28,536 nt of DNA from a virus, in UHGV virus genome UHGV-1508137; one strand, given 5' to 3'. Position numbers and translations under genes: made by a program. Below are positions 1,851-16,350 of the stretch, one piece after another. Every line of letters starts with the position of its first letter. The first letter of the stretch is position 1. The notes beneath the pieces are model-generated. The model saw only the letters and a list, made by a program, of their open reading frames with translations. It made no database searches and was not told where the DNA came from.

Positions 1851-2453
1851 ATGAGCTATTTTCTGCGCAAAAAATGGATGGTAAATTTGTCCGGGTCAGG
1901 AAAAATTTTATGGGCGCTAAACATGAAAAAAGATTCGTATCCTTATTTGATTTGCATGACAGTTTCAGGGCTGATCTTTATTTTCCTTTTCTTCTGGTGG
2001 CGGGCAGATATCTACAGGGTCACGTTTCTTAATCAGAGTATATCCCACTATTACATTCTGTTTAGCATGGGAATAGCTTTTCTGTTATCTCTGTTTTGGG
2101 TTAAGAAGGGGATAGTAAAACAAAGCGGCTGGAAGAGTCTGTCAGCATACCTTAAGGTTTATGCAGGGATGTGCATATTTGCTGGATTTTTTCTGATTAT
2201 ACCCCTTACGACACTAACTTATTTTTTGCCTGGAGAGACATCGTCTTATGTTGCACCGTATCGGTATACTTCCGGTAGTTCAAAAAGTTGTTCTGGAGCT
2301 GAGGTGGATGACCCCGATCTACATGAGAATATTCGCATTTGCTATCCGTATGGCAATTATGAGTACGATAATATTATCTATGTTGAAAAGAAAATTAATA
2401 TATTAGGTGCGGTAGTGACATATGCACAGACCGCGCGTGATGATACTGAATGA
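1851..2453 (+). CDS. hypothetical integral membrane protein, 200 aa (alternative starts at 1878 or 1923), 3 predicted TM helices plus ~80-aa C-terminal soluble region
   Basis: ORF on the strand opposite to int/xis/exo; visibly AT-rich; hydrophobic segments LICMTVSGLIFIFLFFWW, YYILFSMGIAFLLSLFWV, VYAGMCIFAGFFLIIPLTTL. Confidence 0.6.
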   Translation: MSYFLRKKWMVNLSGSGKILWALNMKKDSYPYLICMTVSGLIFIFLFFWWRADIYRVTFLNQSISHYYILFSMGIAFLLSLFWVKKGIVKQSGWKSLSAYLKVYAGMCIFAGFFLIIPLTTLTYFLPGETSSYVAPYRYTSGSSKSCSGAEVDDPDLHENIRICYPYGNYEYDNIIYVEKKINILGAVVTYAQTARDDTE

Positions 2454-6358: not shown

Positions 6359-6456
6359 TCAGGCAGCTTTGTTGTTCTGTTTACCAAGTTCTCTGGCAAT
6401 CATTGCCGTCGTTCGTATTGCCCACACCATTGATTCTTATCAATAGTCGCAGTCAT
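6359..6456 (-). pseudogene. ral: ral remnant: N-terminal 12 codons (MTATIDKNQWCG) and C-terminal 21 codons (WAIRTTAMIARELGKQNNKAA) joined out of frame; ~100 bp internal deletion relative to 66-codon lambda ral
   Basis: Both ends translate to Ral termini in different frames; ATG frame stops after 18 codons; junction at a tgggca microhomology. Confidence 0.65.
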
Positions 6457-6578: not shown

Positions 6579-7476
<898 letters not shown>

Positions 7477-7903: not shown

Positions 7904-8524
7904 TTAATGCTGGGGAGTGATTTTTTTGTTGTCTGTTGGCTGGGTATTTTGTGGCGGCGCTTGCAAAGTGGAAGGCTGTTGCAAAGGTGCGTGGTCTGAC
8001 TTTAAAGCTGATACCAGCCCGGGAATCGCAACTATTACAGCGATAATGACACTAAAAATGGCTAATCGTATAGAAATACCCGACTGAACACCACTAATTG
8101 CGGTATTAACCCCTGTTATTTGTCCTTGAATTCCTTCGAATCTCCCATTAATTGCTTTTAAATCGCCAGCAGCGCTATCCATTTTTCCATCGATCTTGGA
8201 CGATAGAGAGCTTATGGCCGCATTAAGTGATGCAAATTGGACATTAACGCTTTCACGAGATAGAGCCATGTCAGCCCTAATGGAAGAAGCAATAGACTCC
8301 ATCTCTGCTTTATTAGCAGCTAAGCGAGCATCAAGTTCCTCTCTGCTGATCGTTCCCACTTCTTCCTCCGTTTGTGGCGGTTTTATGTAATTATTTTGCA
8401 CCTTGGTGGGAGAATTATCAAATTCAGCCTCAAAATCGGAACCGCCAACAACCTTCAACCTCCGGCTTTCAGATATGTTGGTGTCTTGCTTTCCATGATT
8501 ATTTAAATTGCTGTCGTCACTCAT
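7904..8524 (-). CDS. hypothetical tail-anchored membrane protein, 206 aa (acidic N-terminus, long amphipathic/coiled-coil region, single C-terminal TM helix LAIFSVIIAVIVAIPGLVSAL, Pro/Gln-rich tail); second gene of the cI operon at the rexB position
   Basis: ATGA start/stop overlap with the upstream gene; AT-rich; not related to RexB as I recall it. Confidence 0.75.
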   Translation of the reverse strand: MSDDSNLNNHGKQDTNISESRRLKVVGGSDFEAEFDNSPTKVQNNYIKPPQTEEEVGTISREELDARLAANKAEMESIASSIRADMALSRESVNVQFASLNAAISSLSSKIDGKMDSAAGDLKAINGRFEGIQGQITGVNTAISGVQSGISIRLAIFSVIIAVIVAIPGLVSALKSDHAPLQQPSTLQAPPQNTQPTDNKKITPQH

Positions 8525-9005
8525 AATAGCTCTACGGTGAAAAATGATTCATTTTTATGAAGTTCATTTTTAGGGTCTTCATTATCTTGCAATCTCCCTA
8601 TAACACTATACAGCCCTTTAGCTGGGACCCTAATTTCTTTCAATGTTACTATTACCTGTCCGCCAACCCCTGTTTCAAAATGGCTATCTTTCGTATCGAT
8701 GAAAAGTGAAACTGATTCCGAAGATCCGTCAGGGAATTGAATTTCCTCACCTTTTTTTATAATTAGGTGCGCGGGGATTACCATAATACCCAAATTATAT
8801 CTTGAATTTGGTTTCAACCCGATCATACCAACCCTGAAATCAATTGATAGCCGCGCAGGAAATTCATTGCATGTAAAATTAAGCGTCGGTTGGTTGGGTT
8901 CTTCGCTGCTATCAAATGGGGTTATAAAAGATATTCTTTCTAAATTAAGTGCCATAAATTCTCCTGCATCGCTGTATGCTCTACGAGCATCTCGGCGACT
9001 TATCA

Positions 9006-9006
<1 letters not shown>
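8521..9006 (-). CDS. hypothetical soluble protein, 161 aa; first gene downstream of cI at the rexA position
   Basis: ATG overlaps the cI stop (tgATGa); AT-rich relative to cI; no TM segment; not related to RexA as I recall it. Confidence 0.75.
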
Positions 9007-9722
<716 letters not shown>

Positions 9723-9729
9723 TTAAATC

Positions 9730-9795
9730 TATCACCGCAAGGGATAAATATCTAACACCGTGCGTGTTGACTGTTTTACCTCTAGCGGTGATAAT
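9730..9795. promoter_or_regulatory. OR3 (9730-9746), OR2 (9753-9769), OR1 (9777-9793) with divergent promoters pRM and pR
   Basis: tatcaccgcaagggata, taacaccgtgcgtgttg, tacctctagcggtgata; pR -35 ttgact, -10 gataat. Confidence 0.9.
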
Positions 9796-9810
9796 AATTG
9801 CATGTACTAA

Positions 9811-10020
<210 letters not shown>

Positions 10021-10027
10021 ATAACAC

Positions 10028-10059
10028 CGCTCTTACACATCACAGCCCTGAAAAAGGGC
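10028..10059 (+). promoter_or_regulatory. nutR: nutR (boxA cgctctta, boxB gccctgaaaaagggc)
   Basis: Both lambda motifs read directly downstream of cro. Confidence 0.85.
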
Positions 10060-10124
10060 ATCCAATTAAACCACACCTATGGTGTATGCATTTATTTGCA
10101 TACATTCAATCAATTGTTATCTAA

Positions 10125-10165
10125 GGAAATACTTACATATGGTTCGTGCAAACAAACGCAACGAG
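10125..10165 (-). promoter_or_regulatory. pRE with CII binding repeats ttgcgtttgtttgc (minus strand) overlapping the cII start
   Basis: Reverse complement of 10148-10161 is TTGC-N6-TTGC; -10-like aagtat upstream of it on the minus strand. Confidence 0.65.
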
Positions 10166-10432
10166 GCACTACGAATCGAGAGTGCGTTGCTTAACAAAAT
10201 CGCAATGCTTGGAACTGAGAAGACAGCGGAAGCTGTGGGAGTTGATAAGTCGCAGATCAGCAGGTGGAAGAGAGACTGGATTCCCAAGTTCTCAATGCTG
10301 CTTGCTGTTCTTGAATGGGGGGTCGTTGACGACGACATGGCTCGATTGGCGCGACAAGTTGCTGCGATTCTCACCAATAAAAAACGCCCGGCGGCAACCG
10401 AGCGTTCTGAACAAATCCAGATGGAGTTCTGA
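10139..10432 (+). CDS. cII: CII transcriptional activator, 97 aa
   Basis: MVRANKRNEALRIESALLNKIAMLGTEKTAEAVGVDKSQISRWKRDWIPKFSMLLAVLEWGVVDDDMARLARQVAAILTNKKRPAATERSEQIQMEF matches lambda CII. Confidence 0.95.
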   Translation: MVRANKRNEALRIESALLNKIAMLGTEKTAEAVGVDKSQISRWKRDWIPKFSMLLAVLEWGVVDDDMARLARQVAAILTNKKRPAATERSEQIQMEF

Positions 10433-10454
10433 GGTCATTACTGGATCTATCAAC
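10376..10454 (-). ncRNA. oop: oop antisense RNA (about 77 nt) overlapping the cII 3' end, with pO promoter just upstream at about 10455-10490
   Basis: Minus strand reads guugauagauccaguaaugaccucagaacuccaucuggauuuguucagaacgcucgguugccgccgggcguuuuuuauu, the lambda oop sequence with its terminator. Confidence 0.85.
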
Positions 10455-10464
10455 AGGAGTCATT

Positions 10465-11364
10465 ATGACAAATACAGCAAAAATACTCAACTTCGGCAGA
10501 GGTAACTTTGCCGGACAGGAGCGTAATGTGGCAGATCTCGATGATGGTTACGCCAGACTATCAAATATGCTGCTTGAGGCTTATTCGGGCGCAGATCTGA
10601 CCAAGCGACAGTTTAAAGTGCTGCTTGCCATTCTGCGTAAAACCTATGGGTGGAATAAACCAATGGACAGAATCACCGATTCTCAACTTAGCGAGATTAC
10701 AAAGTTACCTGTCAAACGGTGCAATGAAGCCAAGTTAGAACTCGTCAGAATGAATATTATCAAGCAGCAAGGCGGCATGTTTGGACCAAATAAAAACATC
10801 TCAGAATGGTGCATCCCTCAAAACGAGGGAAAATCCCCTAAAACGAGGGATAAAACATCCCTCAAATTGGGGGATTGCTATCCCTCAAAACAGGGGGACA
10901 CAAAAGACACTATTACAAAAGAAAAAAGAAAAGATTATTCGTCAGAGAATTCTGGCGAATCCTCTGACCAGCCAGAAAACGACCTTTCTGTGGTGAAACC
11001 GGATGCTGCAATTCAGAGCGGCAGCAAGTGGGGGACAGCAGAAGACCTGACCGCCGCAGAGTGGATGTTTGACATGGTGAAGACTATCGCACCATCAGCC
11101 AGAAAACCGAATTTTGCTGGGTGGGCTAACGATATCCGCCTGATGCGTGAACGTGACGGACGTAACCACCGCGATATGTGTGTGCTGTTCCGCTGGGCAT
11201 GCCAGGACAACTTCTGGTCCGGTAACGTGCTGAGCCCGGCCAAACTCCGCGATAAGTGGACCCAACTCGAAATCAACCGTAACAAGCAACAGGCAGGCGT
11301 GACAGCCAGCAAACCAAAACTCGACCTGACAAACACAGACTGGATTTACGGGGTGGATCTATGA
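10465..11364 (+). CDS. O: replication initiator O, 299 aa
   Basis: MTNTAKILNFGRGNFAGQERNVADLDDGYARLSNMLLEAYSGADLTKRQFKVLLAILRKTYGWNKPMDRITD... matches lambda O. Confidence 0.97.
   Translation: MTNTAKILNFGRGNFAGQERNVADLDDGYARLSNMLLEAYSGADLTKRQFKVLLAILRKTYGWNKPMDRITDSQLSEITKLPVKRCNEAKLELVRMNIIKQQGGMFGPNKNISEWCIPQNEGKSPKTRDKTSLKLGDCYPSKQGDTKDTITKEKRKDYSSENSGESSDQPENDLSVVKPDAAIQSGSKWGTAEDLTAAEWMFDMVKTIAPSARKPNFAGWANDIRLMRERDGRNHRDMCVLFRWACQDNFWSGNVLSPAKLRDKWTQLEINRNKQQAGVTASKPKLDLTNTDWIYGVDL
10813..10940 (+). repeat. ori: ori-lambda: four iterons (tccctcaaaacgaggga-type) followed by an A/T-rich region, inside O
   Basis: Four tandem ~18-bp iterons read directly, then an A/T-rich stretch. Confidence 0.85.
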
Positions 11365-12062
11365 AAAACATCGCCGCACAGATGGTTAACTTTGACCGTG
11401 AGCAGATGCGTCGGATCGCCAACAACATGCCGGAACAGTACGACGAAAAGCCGCAGGTACAGCAGGTAGCGCAGATCATCAACGGTGTGTTCAGCCAGTT
11501 ACTGGCAACTTTCCCGGCGAGCCTGGCTAACCGTGACCAGAACGAAGTGAACGAAATCCGTCGCCAGTGGGTTCTGGCTTTTCGGGAAAACGGGATCACC
11601 ACGATGGAACAGGTTAACGCAGGAATGCGCGTAGCCCGTCGGCAGAATCGACCATTTCTGCCATCACCCGGGCAGTTTGTTGCATGGTGCCGGGAAGAAG
11701 CATCCGTTACCGCCGGACTGCCAAACGTCAGCGAGCTGGTTGATATGGTTTACGAGTATTGCCGGAAGCGAGGCCTGTATCCGGATGCGGAGTCTTATCC
11801 GTGGAAATCAAACGCGCACTACTGGCTGATTACCAACCTGTATCAGAACATGCGGGCCAATGCGCTTACTGATGCGGAATTACGCCGTAAGGCCGCAGAT
11901 GAGCTTGTCCATATGACTGCGAGAATTAACCGTGGTGAGGCGATCCCTGAACCAGTAAAACAACTTCCTGTCATGGGCGGTAGACCTCTAAATCGTGCAC
12001 AGGCTCTGGCGAAGATCGCAGAAATCAAAGCTAAGTTCGGACTGAAAGGAGCAAGTGTATGA
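11361..12062 (+). CDS. P: replication protein P (DnaB helicase loader), 233 aa
   Basis: MKNIAAQMVNFDREQMRRIANNMPEQYDEKPQVQQVAQIINGVFSQLLATFPASLANRDQNEVNEIRRQWVLAF... matches lambda P. Confidence 0.97.
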   Translation: MKNIAAQMVNFDREQMRRIANNMPEQYDEKPQVQQVAQIINGVFSQLLATFPASLANRDQNEVNEIRRQWVLAFRENGITTMEQVNAGMRVARRQNRPFLPSPGQFVAWCREEASVTAGLPNVSELVDMVYEYCRKRGLYPDAESYPWKSNAHYWLITNLYQNMRANALTDAELRRKAADELVHMTARINRGEAIPEPVKQLPVMGGRPLNRAQALAKIAEIKAKFGLKGASV

Positions 12063-12349
12063 CGGGCAAAGAGGCAATTATTCATTACCTGGGGACGCAT
12101 AATAGCTTCTGTGCGCCGGACGTTGCCGCGCTAACAGGCGCAACAGTAACCAGCATAAATCAGGCCGCGGCTAAAATGGCACGGGCAGGTCTTCTGGTTA
12201 TCGAAGGTAAGGTCTGGCGAACGGTGTATTACCGGTTTGCTACCAGGGAAGAACGGGAAGGAAAGATGAGCACGAACCTGATTTTTAAGGAGTGTCGCCA
12301 GAGTGCCGCGATGAAACGGGTATTGGCAGTATATGGAGTTAAAAGATGA
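12059..12349 (+). CDS. ren: Ren, 96 aa
   Basis: MTGKEAIIHYLGTHNSFCAPDVAALTGATVTSINQAAAKMARAGLLVIEGKVWRTVYYRF... matches lambda Ren; ATGA overlap with P. Confidence 0.9.
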   Translation: MTGKEAIIHYLGTHNSFCAPDVAALTGATVTSINQAAAKMARAGLLVIEGKVWRTVYYRFATREEREGKMSTNLIFKECRQSAAMKRVLAVYGVKR

Positions 12350-12374
12350 CCATCTACATCACTGAGCTAATAAC

Positions 12375-12407
12375 AGGCCTGCTGGTAATCGCAGGCCTTT
12401 TTATTTG
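12375..12407 (+). terminator. tR2 intrinsic terminator (8-bp stem aggcctgc/gcaggcct then ttttattt)
   Basis: Hairpin and U-tract read directly between ren and ninB. Confidence 0.8.
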
Positions 12408-12422
12408 GGGGAGAGGGAAGTC

Positions 12423-12863
12423 ATGAAAAAACTAACCTTTGAAATTCGATCTCCAGCACATCAGCAAAACGCTATTCACGCGGTACAGCAAATTCTTCCA
12501 GACCCAACCAAACCAATCGTAGTAACCATTCAGGAACGCAACCGCAGCTTAGACCAGAATCGAAAGCTTTGGGCTTGCCTTGGTGACGTCTCTCGTCAGG
12601 TTGAATGGCATGGTCGCTGGCTGGATGCAGAAAGCTGGAAGTGTGTGTTTACCGCAGCATTAAAGCAGCAGGATGTTGTTCCTAACCTTGCCGGGAATGG
12701 CTTTGTGGTAATAGGCCAGTCAACCAGCAGGATGCGTGTAAACGAATTTGCGGAGCTATTAGAGCTTATACAGGCATTCGGTACAGAGCGTGGCGTTAAG
12801 TGGTCAGACGAAGCGCGACTGGCTCTCGAATGGAAAGCGCGATGGGGAGATCGGGCTGCATGA
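12423..12863 (+). CDS. ninB: NinB (Orf-family recombination mediator), 146 aa
   Basis: MKKLTFEIRSPAHQQNAIHAVQQILPDPTKPIVVTIQERNRSLDQNRKLWACLGDVSRQVEWHGRW... matches lambda NinB. Confidence 0.9.
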   Translation: MKKLTFEIRSPAHQQNAIHAVQQILPDPTKPIVVTIQERNRSLDQNRKLWACLGDVSRQVEWHGRWLDAESWKCVFTAALKQQDVVPNLAGNGFVVIGQSTSRMRVNEFAELLELIQAFGTERGVKWSDEARLALEWKARWGDRAA

Positions 12864-13387
12864 CTATCAAATCAAATACGCCAGCACACGACAAGGACTG
12901 CTGGCAAACGCCGCTTTGGCTTTTTGATGCACTGGATATTGAGTTTGGATTCTGGCTGGATTCGGCAGCGAGCGACAAAAATGCTCTGTGTGCTCACTGG
13001 CTAACTGAGGCCGACGACGCGCTCAATTCTGAGTGGGTAAGCCACGGTGCAATCTGGAATAACCCACCGTACAGCAATATCAGGCCGTGGGTGGAAAAAG
13101 CCGCTGAGCAGTGCATACAACAGCGACAGACGGTAGTTATGCTTGTGCCAGAGGATATGTCAGTCGGATGGTTCAGCAAGGCTCTGGAGAGTGTCGACGA
13201 AGTTCGCATTATCACTGATGGACGGATTAATTTTATCGAACCATCGACAGGGTTGGAGAAGAAGGGAAACAGCAAAGGCTCCATGCTGCTGATTTGGCGA
13301 CCGTTCATCAGTCCTCGACGGATGTTTACTACCGTATCCAAAGCGGCATTGATGGCGATCGGGCAGGGCGTCAGGAGGGCGGCATGA
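12860..13387 (+). CDS. phage-type DNA N6-adenine methyltransferase (Dam-like, orphan), 175 aa
   Basis: NPPY catalytic motif ([11 protein letters not shown]) and [13 protein letters not shown]-terminal motif; ATGA coupling to ninB; occupies the position of lambda ninC/ninD. Confidence 0.8.
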
Positions 13388-13560
13388 GGCGACAGCGACG
13401 AAGTTTCACCGAAATCATCTGCGAAAACTGCAAATACCTTCCAACGAAACGCTCCAGAAATAAACGCAAGCCAATCCCAAAAGAATCTGACGTAAAAACC
13501 TTCAATTACACAGCTCACCTGTGGGATATCCGGTGGCTAAGATATCGTGCGAGGAAATGA
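13384..13560 (+). CDS. ninE: NinE, 58 aa
   Basis: [58 protein letters not shown]; ATGA coupling to the methyltransferase gene. Confidence 0.8.
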
Positions 13561-13904
13561 CAATGGATTATTCACAGTTAAGTGATTTTGAAATTAACAG
13601 AATGGTAGGAGACATAATTTTTAAAGGCCTTTGGGCAAGTAAACCGGAAACATCAGGGAATAACACCAACAAATGGTATTACGGAAATGCTGATACAACT
13701 TTTGAGCCATTAAATCATTTGCCTGACTACTGCAATGATCCGAGCGCTTCATGGCCGATTATTGAGAAATACAGGATTTCTATCTTAGACCAGTTAACTG
13801 AATGGTGTGTGGATGCAAAAGGCGTAAGCCCAATATTTGATACCAGACCTCTCCGCGCCGCCATGATTGTCTTTCTCCTGATGCAGGAGGCCAATAATGC
13901 TTAG
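13557..13904 (+). CDS. hypothetical nin-region protein, 115 aa
   Basis: Translationally coupled ORF (ATGA with ninE); AT-rich; no motif recognised. Confidence 0.6.
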
Positions 13905-14091
13905 CCCATCTCAATCCCTTCAATACCTGAAAGGAAGCATAGAGCGGGCTTCAATGTGCACAGAGTGGATTCTATCTAGGTTTAGCGCATACAGAAGATT
14001 GCCGGTAAAGGGCATGCCAAGCAAGTCGATGCTGCATATGCAAAAGAATGCGCGCTGGAAGGTATGGCGAGAACACAGGTTATCTGGCTGA
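13897..14091 (+). CDS. NinF-like small protein, 64 aa (N-terminal 10 residues [10 protein letters not shown] as lambda NinF, remainder divergent)
   Basis: Open frame with ATG at 13897 overlapping the upstream stop by 8 nt; identity to lambda NinF limited to the first ~10 codons as I recall NinF. Confidence 0.5.
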
Positions 14092-14110
14092 AAGAGGGGG
14101 TTATTAAGGC

Positions 14111-14473
14111 GTGAATACCTACAGCATCACATTACCCTGGCCTCCGAGCAATAATCGCTATTACCGCCATAATCGCGGGCGCACGCACGTCAGCGCAGAG
14201 GGGCAGGCATACCGCGATAACGTCGCCCGAATCATTAAAAACGCAATGCTGGATATCGGCCTGGCTATGCCTGTGAAAATCCGCATTGAGTGCCACATGC
14301 CGGATCGCCGTCGCCGTGACCTGGATAATCTGCAAAAAGCCGCTTTTGACGCACTCACTAAAGCAGGTTTCTGGCTGGATGATGCTCAGGTCGTTGATTA
14401 CCGCGTTGTGAAGATGCCTGTTACCAAAGGTGGGAGGCTGGAACTGACCATCACCGAAATGGGGAATGAATGA
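14111..14473 (+). CDS. rusA: RusA Holliday-junction resolvase, 120 aa (GTG start)
   Basis: [100 protein letters not shown]... matches E. coli DLP12 RusA. Confidence 0.92.
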
Positions 14474-14610
14474 TGTTTGAGTTTAATATGGCAGAACGTC
14501 TTCGCCACCGCTGGGGGCGTCTGCGCTTATATCGTTTCCCCGGTTCTGTTTTGACCGATTACCGAATACTGAAGAATTACGCCAAAACCCTGACAGGAGC
14601 AGGAGTATGA
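14470..14610 (+). CDS. ylcG: YlcG-like small protein, 46 aa
   Basis: Hand translation [46 protein letters not shown]; ATGA coupled to rusA, as in DLP12. Confidence 0.7.
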
Positions 14611-14695
14611 AGTCAGAGATAACAATCAACTAATACTGTTTCGTTGATTTTTGCTTGTAATTGGCGTTCTGGTCTGATTTTTGTGGAGTAAGTTG

Positions 14696-15079
14696 ATGCG
14701 TGATATTCAGATGGTTCTTGAGCGTTGGGGAGCGTGGGCGGCTAATAATCATGAAGATGTGACCTGGTCGTCCATTGCCGCCGGTTTTAAGGGATTAATT
14801 ACTTCAAAAGTAAAATCTCGCCCGCAATGTTGTGACGATGACGCGATGATCATTTGCGGGTGCATGGCCCGTCTGAAAAAGAACAACAGCGATTTGCACG
14901 ATTTATTAGTAGATTATTATGTAGTCGGTATGACATTCATGTCACTGGCAGGTAAGCATTGCTGCTCTGATGGTTATATCGGGAAAAGGTTACAGAAGGC
15001 TGAGGGCATAATTGAAGGGATGTTAATGGCATTAGATATCCGGTTAGAGATGGATATCGTTGTTAATAACTCTAATTAA
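14696..15079 (+). CDS. Q: late antiterminator Q, phage 82 / DLP12 QuuD type, 127 aa
   Basis: [71 protein letters not shown]... ; Cys-rich zinc-binding region; unlike lambda Q. Confidence 0.85.
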
Positions 15080-15267: not shown

Positions 15268-16350
15268 TTAGAACTGGTAAACCATACCTACAGCAACGAT
15301 ATCATCGGTAGCAACGCCAGATGCTTTCGTGAAATCGCTCTTATCAATCAGGTTGATTTTGTAGTCAACAAAAGTGGACATATTTTTGTTGAAGTAATAG
15401 GTTGCACCTACATCAACATATTCAACCAGGTCCTGATCACCCCAAACACCCAAGTCTTTTCCTTTAGAATGCAGGTAAGCAACGGATGGACGCAGGCCGA
15501 AGTCGAACTGATATTGTGCAACAGCTTCGAAGTTTTGTGCTTTGTTGGCAATATGGTTATTACCAAAAACAGTCATGTTCTGGGTTTCAGAATAGGTGGT
15601 GGCCAGATAGATGTTGTTCGCATCATATTTCAGACCAGCTGCCCATACTTCAGCATTTTGACCAGAAGCATTCAGACCGTTGTTACCGTAGATAACCTGA
15701 TTATTAGTGCGATCAGATTTAGCATAGGTTGCACCCACGCCGAATCCTTCATACTCATAAGTAGTTGAGAAACCGAAACCATCGCCATTAGCTTCAGTTA
15801 CTTCATTTCGGTCATTTTTGCCCTGATACTGAGCTGCAAAGTTCAGGCCATCAACCAGACCAAAGAAGTCGTTGTTACGATAAGTTGCAACACCTGTGGT
15901 GCGACCAGTCATGAATACATCTGTTTGGGTCCAGGTATCGCCACCGAATTCTGGCAGAACGTCAGTCCACGCACCGATGTCGTATGCTACACCGTAGTTA
16001 CGGCCGTAATCGATTGAGCCGTAGTCACCGAATTTCAGGCCTGCAAATGCAAGACGGGTTTTGTCTTTGGAGGAACCTTGAGATTCAGCGCGGTTGCCTT
16101 TGAATTCATATTCCCACTGACCGAAACCAGTCAGTTGATCGTTGATTTGGGTTTCACCTTTGAAGCCAAGACGGGCATAAGTAGTATCACCATCATCTGC
16201 ATCATTAGAGGAGAAGTAGTGCTTAGCATTAACTTTCCCGTACAGATCCAGCTTGTTACTGTCTTTATTATAAATTTCAGCTGCCTGAGCAGACATCGCC
16301 ATCAGTACTGATGCAGCTACAGCAGAAATTGCCACTGTTAATTTTTTCAT
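15268..16350 (-). CDS. nmpC: general outer-membrane porin (OmpC/OmpF/NmpC/Lc family), 360 aa with signal peptide
   Basis: [23 protein letters not shown] signal peptide, C-terminal ...VGMVYQF beta-barrel terminal Phe; synteny with DLP12 quuD-nmpC-essD. Symbol assigned by synteny only. Confidence 0.85.

Follow-up and report, generated by a model that had tools for sequence, protein, structure and literature searches.

A small gene in the nin region of a lambda-immunity prophage very probably encodes an active, stand-alone, AdoMet-dependent N6-adenine methyltransferase that targets GATC; its product belongs to a minimal phage family and is identical to that of VT2-Sakai orf32. The gene, called dam below, lies in the virus genome UHGV-1508137, and this whole 28,536-nucleotide stretch of DNA is referred to as the window. 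It is a gene that was already known: a standard module of lambdoid nin regions that is correctly named by annotation pipelines.

The dam gene and its product

The gene, its catalytic motifs and its immediate surroundings map to the window as follows.

12375–12408, plus strand: intrinsic terminator in the gap between ren and ninB, with an 8-bp GC-rich stem (stem 12375–12398) followed by TTTTATTT, in a block 98% identical to lambda
12423–12863, plus strand: ninB (Orf recombination mediator), upstream of dam; PF05772, 1.2e-54; DNA 98% identical to lambda
12860–12863, plus strand: ATGA overlap between the dam start and the ninB stop (12861–12863)
12860–13387, plus strand: dam, 175 uninterrupted codons from the ATG at 12860 to the TGA at 13385–13387; PF05869/TIGR01712
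12864–13390, plus strand: mosaic module in place of lambda ninC and ninD (lambda 41085–42096), by blastn against lambda
12950–12973, plus strand: codons F31-W-L-D34-S-A-A-S38, containing the L-D-x-x-A segment
13061–13072, plus strand: NPPY codons N68-P69-P70-Y71
13384–13387, plus strand: ATGA overlap between the ninE start and the dam stop, preceded by an AGGAGG Shine-Dalgarno sequence
13384–13560, plus strand: ninE, downstream of dam; PF05322, 1.9e-41

Although in-frame ATGs occur further upstream, the start at 12860 is supported by the family profiles, which begin at residues 2–4 of the resulting 175-residue protein. This protein matched the Pfam family PF05869, "DNA N-6-adenine-methyltransferase (Dam)", with E=6.4e-65 and 218.4 bits over profile positions 1–167 of 169 (curated cut-off, 28.1 bits), and the NCBIfam equivalog TIGR01712, "phage N-6-adenine-methyltransferase", with E=9.7e-80 and 265.9 bits over positions 1–165 of 165 (curated cut-off, 97.05 bits). 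Because both profiles are matched over their full length, a chance open reading frame is excluded. The protein was also assigned to phrog_111 ("DNA methyltransferase", 8.6e-88) in PHROGs, and in PADLOC its best match was to the orphan-methyltransferase models (3.6e-19). Coordinates, length and motif all agree with the first-pass annotation, which had described a 175-residue protein with an NPPY motif at 12860–13387.

The NPPY tetrapeptide, which was read from the sequence, is catalytic motif IV of amino-methyltransferases. In alignments it is invariant in 35 family members as well as in the Dam enzymes of Haemophilus phage HP1 (orf13) and coliphage T1 (gp20). In PamA, a relative encoded by the S. 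aureus prophage mPhi11, the P65T substitution abolishes activity (PMC12435837); a comparison of residue numbering places P65 at the first proline of the PamA NPPY, and the dam protein has the equivalent site. Within the F31–S38 segment, L33, D34 and A37 are invariant relative to HP1 Dam and T1 Dam, and the order of the motifs suggests that L-D-x-x-A may be the equivalent of AdoMet-binding motif I. The residues invariant among these three proteins also include D13, W15, T17, P18 and N68-P-P-Y-S72. Alignment to phage Dam-family enzymes had been proposed as a check for the loss of catalytic residues; NPPY was retained, as were all 44 of the columns that are invariant across 35 homologues.

HP1 Dam and T1 Dam are members of PF05869 that are 36% and 30% identical to the dam protein, respectively, and they share with it an N-terminal D-x-W-x-T-P motif, L-D-x-x-A and NPPYS, all of them invariant. 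Each is an orphan whose gene closes a block of early or replication genes, but their genomic contexts are unrelated to the nin region, and T1 Dam differs further by a 44-residue N-terminal extension and a 14-residue insertion. PamA likewise matches PF05869 (5.6e-30), contains NPPY and is encoded by an orphan gene just after replication genes, but it is only 141 residues long and about 34% identical over 131 residues. PamA makes host DNA sensitive to DpnI, and by this digestion it is GATC-specific (PMC12435837). With E. coli Dam, T4 Dam and DpnM (PF02086, alpha-class), the dam protein shares the reaction, the reported G(m6A)TC target and a Rossmann-type core. However, it has no match to the PF02086 profile and none of the DPPY motif, the FxGxG motif or the inserted recognition domain of the canonical enzymes. 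The original description of the protein as "Dam-like" therefore holds for its function (GATC, from the literature) but not for its family, which is the minimal group of HP1 Dam, T1 Dam and PamA rather than that of E. coli Dam.

The dam protein is a small single-domain enzyme in a family that ranges from about 140 to 240 residues, and it carries no separate target-recognition domain. Its predicted structure has a methyltransferase core fold, with low confidence at residues 34–51. A Foldseek search with this model returned no match at E≤0.001, and no relative in the PDB was detected by sequence or profile, which indicates that the PF05869 family is without a solved structure. As modeled, the protein would be a very reduced amino-methyltransferase core in which L-D-x-x-A is followed by NPPY. 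The variable loops at residues 34–60 and 121–140 are candidates for the elements that read GATC.

A mosaic module between ninB and ninE

The prophage in the window is of the Lambdavirus type with lambda immunity, and its int, xis, exo, bet, gam, N, cI, cro, cII, O, P and ren genes are about 97–98% identical to their lambda counterparts. Overall, the window is matched best by phage mEp332 (86% coverage, 97.6% identity). In a blastn comparison with lambda, positions 9005–12863 correspond to lambda 37226–41084 (98.3%) and positions 13391–13557 to lambda 42097–42263 (94.6%), with no lambda alignment between 12863 and 13391. Homology continues without interruption from cI up to the final base of ninB (12863, equal to lambda 41084) and resumes 7 nt into ninE, such that a 527-bp segment containing dam substitutes for lambda ninC and ninD exactly at gene boundaries. 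The location of dam between ninB and ninE in the ninC/ninD slot, as given in the first-pass annotation, is borne out by these breakpoints. The genes that occupy the slot are unrelated, lambda ninC being annotated as PAPS-reductase-like. With its position between P/ren and Q, its ATGA-packed surroundings and its breakpoints at gene boundaries, the dam segment is a standard mosaic alternative, that is, one of the interchangeable, non-essential modules of the lambdoid nin region.

The sequence at the upstream junction is shared among phages with different modules. The 11-nt stretch that closes ninB, GGGCTGCATGA, does not differ between the window (12853–12863), the ninB/dam junction of VT2-Sakai (L001 16427–16437) and the ninB/ninC junction of lambda (L003 14075–14085). 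This identity holds despite the difference in the downstream gene (dam or ninC) and despite the fact that the 3' end of ninB in VT2-Sakai is a different allele from that in the window. Conservation across differing flanks would be expected if modules are exchanged at conserved gene junctions, and GGGCTGCATGA is a possible recombination joint for such exchange. A GATC in the ribosome-binding region of dam (12849–12852) was considered as an autoregulatory site and rejected, as it is absent from the VT2-Sakai and lambda junctions.

Coupling of dam to both of its neighbors through ATGA overlaps had been singled out in the first-pass annotation. The overlaps are present but not special: the same arrangement is found at six junctions in the early-right operon of the window and at seven in that of lambda, so the double coupling of dam is generic. 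Indeed, ATGA overlaps have been described as characteristic of lambdoid nin regions in general (PMC8022706). No restriction endonuclease was found among the products of the flanking genes (ren, ninB, ninE, NinX, a 64-residue ORF, the junction resolvase RusA, YlcG and Q), in agreement with the earlier statement that no nuclease gene is adjacent. With no cognate nuclease gene beside it, dam does not form part of a type II restriction-modification system.

The terminator at 12375–12408 sits at what we take to be the position of lambda tR2. In lambda, genes behind tR2 on the pR transcript are delayed-early and need N antitermination, and dam is likewise expected to be an N-dependent delayed-early gene of the pR operon. 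Expression of the 528-nt dam gene of phage Phi24B has been observed in cultures of lysogens (PMC3342100).

Several other parts of the window depart from lambda. Downstream of ninE, positions 13557–15079 (plus strand) carry NinX, the 64-residue ORF, rusA, ylcG and a 132-residue Q (Phage_antitermQ, PF06530) in place of lambda ninF–ninI and Q, an arrangement that is presumably that of the cryptic prophage DLP12 of E. coli K-12. Q is followed closely, on the opposite strand, by a full-length general porin gene (15268–16350, minus strand; Porin_1, E=3.5e-152), which is named OmpD in related phage records and is common to mEp332-, PhiR11_1- and ev099-like phages; it is a cargo gene of the lysogenic-conversion type. 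Between the ral/orf28 block and N, a 167-residue ORF (6657–7160, plus strand) sits precisely where lambda has sieB, with lambda homology stopping at 6650 and resuming at 7153. Its product has a C-terminal CxxC...CxxC arrangement and no Pfam or PADLOC match, and it is a candidate for an alternative exclusion or defense gene. Lambda rexB and rexA, between cI and pL, are replaced by two overlapping ORFs of 206 and 162 residues (7904–8524 and 8521–9009, both minus strand) that gave no significant Pfam or PADLOC match and are a candidate prophage-expressed exclusion pair. Finally, a seemingly hydrophobic, membrane-like ORF of 200 residues with no family match lies beside xis (1851–2453, plus strand), on the strand opposite to int and xis and within a segment (1679–2651) that does not align to lambda.

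Identity with VT2-Sakai orf32 and distribution of the gene

The dam protein is identical at 175 of 175 residues to the product of VT2-Sakai orf32 (BAA84315; AP000363 16434–16961), which is located between the homologues of nin146 (ninB) and nin60 (ninE) and goes by the name dam in Phi24B and other related Stx phages. The two genes also have in common their 528-nt length, the position between ninB and ninE, and the ATGA junction. Their phages differ, however: VT2-Sakai is a short-tailed Stx phage, whereas the backbone of the window is that of a Lambdavirus with lambda immunity and is closest to mEp332. A passage of PMC6602927 citing Radlinska & Bujnicki (Acta Microbiol Pol 2001) lists M.EcoVT2Dam, an orphan methyltransferase of the E. 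coli prophage VT2-Sa, as targeting GATC. By annotation, orf32 is the only methylase-like gene in VT2-Sakai. Two other genes considered as M.EcoVT2Dam were ruled out: orf4 is a DUF551 gene, and orf71, with a product of 2806 residues, has LPD/MuF domains only. From this elimination among the VT2-Sakai genes we infer that orf32 is the cloned M.EcoVT2Dam, in which case the exact protein encoded in the window was cloned in 2001. HP1 Dam, T1 Dam and PamA are described in the literature as GATC-specific relatives (for PamA, PMC12435837). As for orf71 itself (L002 22067–30487), its product contains the "large polyvalent protein" domains LPD38, LPD5, LPD1 and MuF_C, and no methylase domain was detected in this 2806-residue Stx-phage protein at E≤0.01.

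The gene is widespread. By megablast it was found in 1566 of 5426 complete E. coli genomes (∼29%), with 505 records at ≥99% identity. Among the matches listed, all 15 E. coli entries were annotated as "phage N-6-adenine-methyltransferase" and had NinB and NinE on either side. Searching phages by DNA recovered 422 records, with Sf101, mEp332, HK544, HK140 and many Stx phages among them, and most of the phage entries among the matches listed also have the NinB and NinE flanks. At the protein level, relatives extend to 2134 phage records, some from T1-like phages of Escherichia and Klebsiella, and the protein cluster to which dam belongs has thousands of identically named member sequences.

The proposed role of a phage GATC methyltransferase in E. 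coli

As a delayed-early gene, dam would depend on N antitermination for its expression, which would confine it to lytic growth or induction, and it would be translated together with ninB and ninE. The phage enzyme would then most likely top up the GATC methylation of fast-replicating phage DNA, since host Dam alone leaves the virion DNA of lambda and P22 undermethylated (PMC8022706), and it would make phage GATC methylation independent of the host Dam level. One pay-off could be protection from nucleases of the MboI/DpnII type, which are blocked by GATC methylation; an alternative would be normal handling of the phage DNA by host proteins that read methylation, such as MutH and SeqA. Anti-restriction by this route is plausible but narrow, with few restriction enzymes being blocked by the modification. 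Against such a benefit, the host already has Dam, and its chromosomal GATC sites are nearly all methylated (41658 of 41686, or ∼99.9%, in an E. coli strain carrying such prophages; PMC6602927). Site usage proved uninformative as a footprint of the gene. The observed/expected ratio for GATC is 0.59 in lambda, which lacks dam, 0.61 in the window and 0.60 in VT2-Sakai, and this equal depletion with and without dam indicates that the gene has left no visible mark on site usage.

An anti-restriction role was suggested in the first-pass annotation, in which the phage was thought to have lost Ral and taken up the methyltransferase as a replacement strategy against host restriction. The ral gene is indeed inactivated, but it has not been deleted outright as that annotation implied: a remnant persists at 6359–6456 (minus strand), in which the 201 nt of lambda ral are cut to 98 nt by a 103-bp internal deletion. 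The deletion lies between short GGRCAAT direct repeats and causes a frameshift, with translation stopping after 18 codons. Phage E212 (MZ043897) pairs the same 98-bp remnant with the dam module, and orphan phage methyltransferases are widely seen as anti-restriction devices, both of which would fit such a swap. Full-length ral and ninB-dam-ninE are nevertheless found together in at least nine phages (Sf101, Chlobot, mEp332, ev243, 2G7b, PhiR11_1, PhiR11_1_star, HK544 and HK140), among them the closest relative of the window, mEp332. Because these nine phages have both genes, ral and dam are not alternatives. Moreover, Ral acts on type I systems by stimulating their methyltransferases (PMC3620542), and type I sites are not protected by GATC methylation. 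The dam module is also carried by about 29% of complete E. coli genomes independently of ral. A swap of strategies is therefore very improbable, and the ral lesion and the dam module are independent.

Three further readings concern what the protein itself does. It could be an epigenetic regulator of the lysogenic-conversion type that methylates host GATC sites as PamA does, although this is distinctly unlikely. S. aureus is not known to have Dam, whereas E. coli already has it, and the change in host gene expression brought about by PamA is not expected in Dam-positive E. coli. In favor of this reading stands PamA itself, a GATC methyltransferase of the same family that increases both virulence and the expression of fnbA (PMC12435837). 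With 41658 of 41686 host sites already methylated in E. coli (PMC6602927), however, there is almost nothing to add, and dam lies behind a terminator in the cI-repressed pR operon. The expression of Phi24B dam in lysogen cultures would favor a role in the prophage state, but such a signal can stem from spontaneously induced cells. In addition, the related phage 933W is reported, in a summary given in PMC3342100, to require host Dam for stable lysogeny, which argues that prophage dam does not substitute for host Dam. A relaxed or non-specific enzyme of the Hia5, Hin1523 or M.EcoGII type, which would give broad protection from many restriction enzymes, is suggested by the very small size of the dam protein, by its lack of a recognizable target-recognition domain, and by the existence of non-specific adenine methyltransferases in other prophages (PMC3299994). 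This too is highly improbable. Enzymes of the Hia5 type are members of the canonical Dam-related group and have DPPY and FxGxG, with the Hia5/Hin1523/Nma1821 family being homologous to EcoDam, DpnM and T4 Dam (PMC3299994). The dam protein has NPPY, lacks FxGxG, falls in another Pfam family, and is not a homologue of EcoDam, DpnM or T4 Dam; Hia5-type enzymes were accordingly ruled out as its relatives. Furthermore, GATC specificity is reported in PMC6602927 and PMC12435837 for the identical protein and for three relatives. M.EcoGIX was also set aside as a prophage relative because it is plasmid-borne in the literature. Lastly, the frameshift in ral shows that decay has occurred in this prophage, and dam might on that account be taken for an inactive remnant. 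This is almost certainly not the case: the reading frame is full length with an end-to-end profile match, 44 of 44 invariant columns are kept, and the protein is identical to that of a functional phage.

An active, GATC-specific enzyme that tops up the methylation of phage DNA thus remains the preferred reading of dam. A more far-reaching version of it, which we consider unlikely, is that full GATC methylation of rapidly replicating and recombining phage DNA would shield undermethylated concatemers and the heteroduplexes formed by Red and NinB from cleavage by MutH and binding by SeqA, in which case adjacency to ninB would be functional. If so, the constant position next to ninB would be no accident, and anti-restriction would not be the real job of the enzyme in Dam-positive hosts. 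Separately, and with the same degree of doubt, the way in which an enzyme of 141–175 residues, lacking both a recognition domain and a relative of solved structure, reads GATC might represent a new mode of sequence recognition. For the window itself, the analysis is mainly useful for removing the suggested link between dam and ral. The wider interest lies with the family as a whole, in the advantage that a GATC methyltransferase may give a phage in a host that already has Dam, and in how so minimal an enzyme achieves its specificity.
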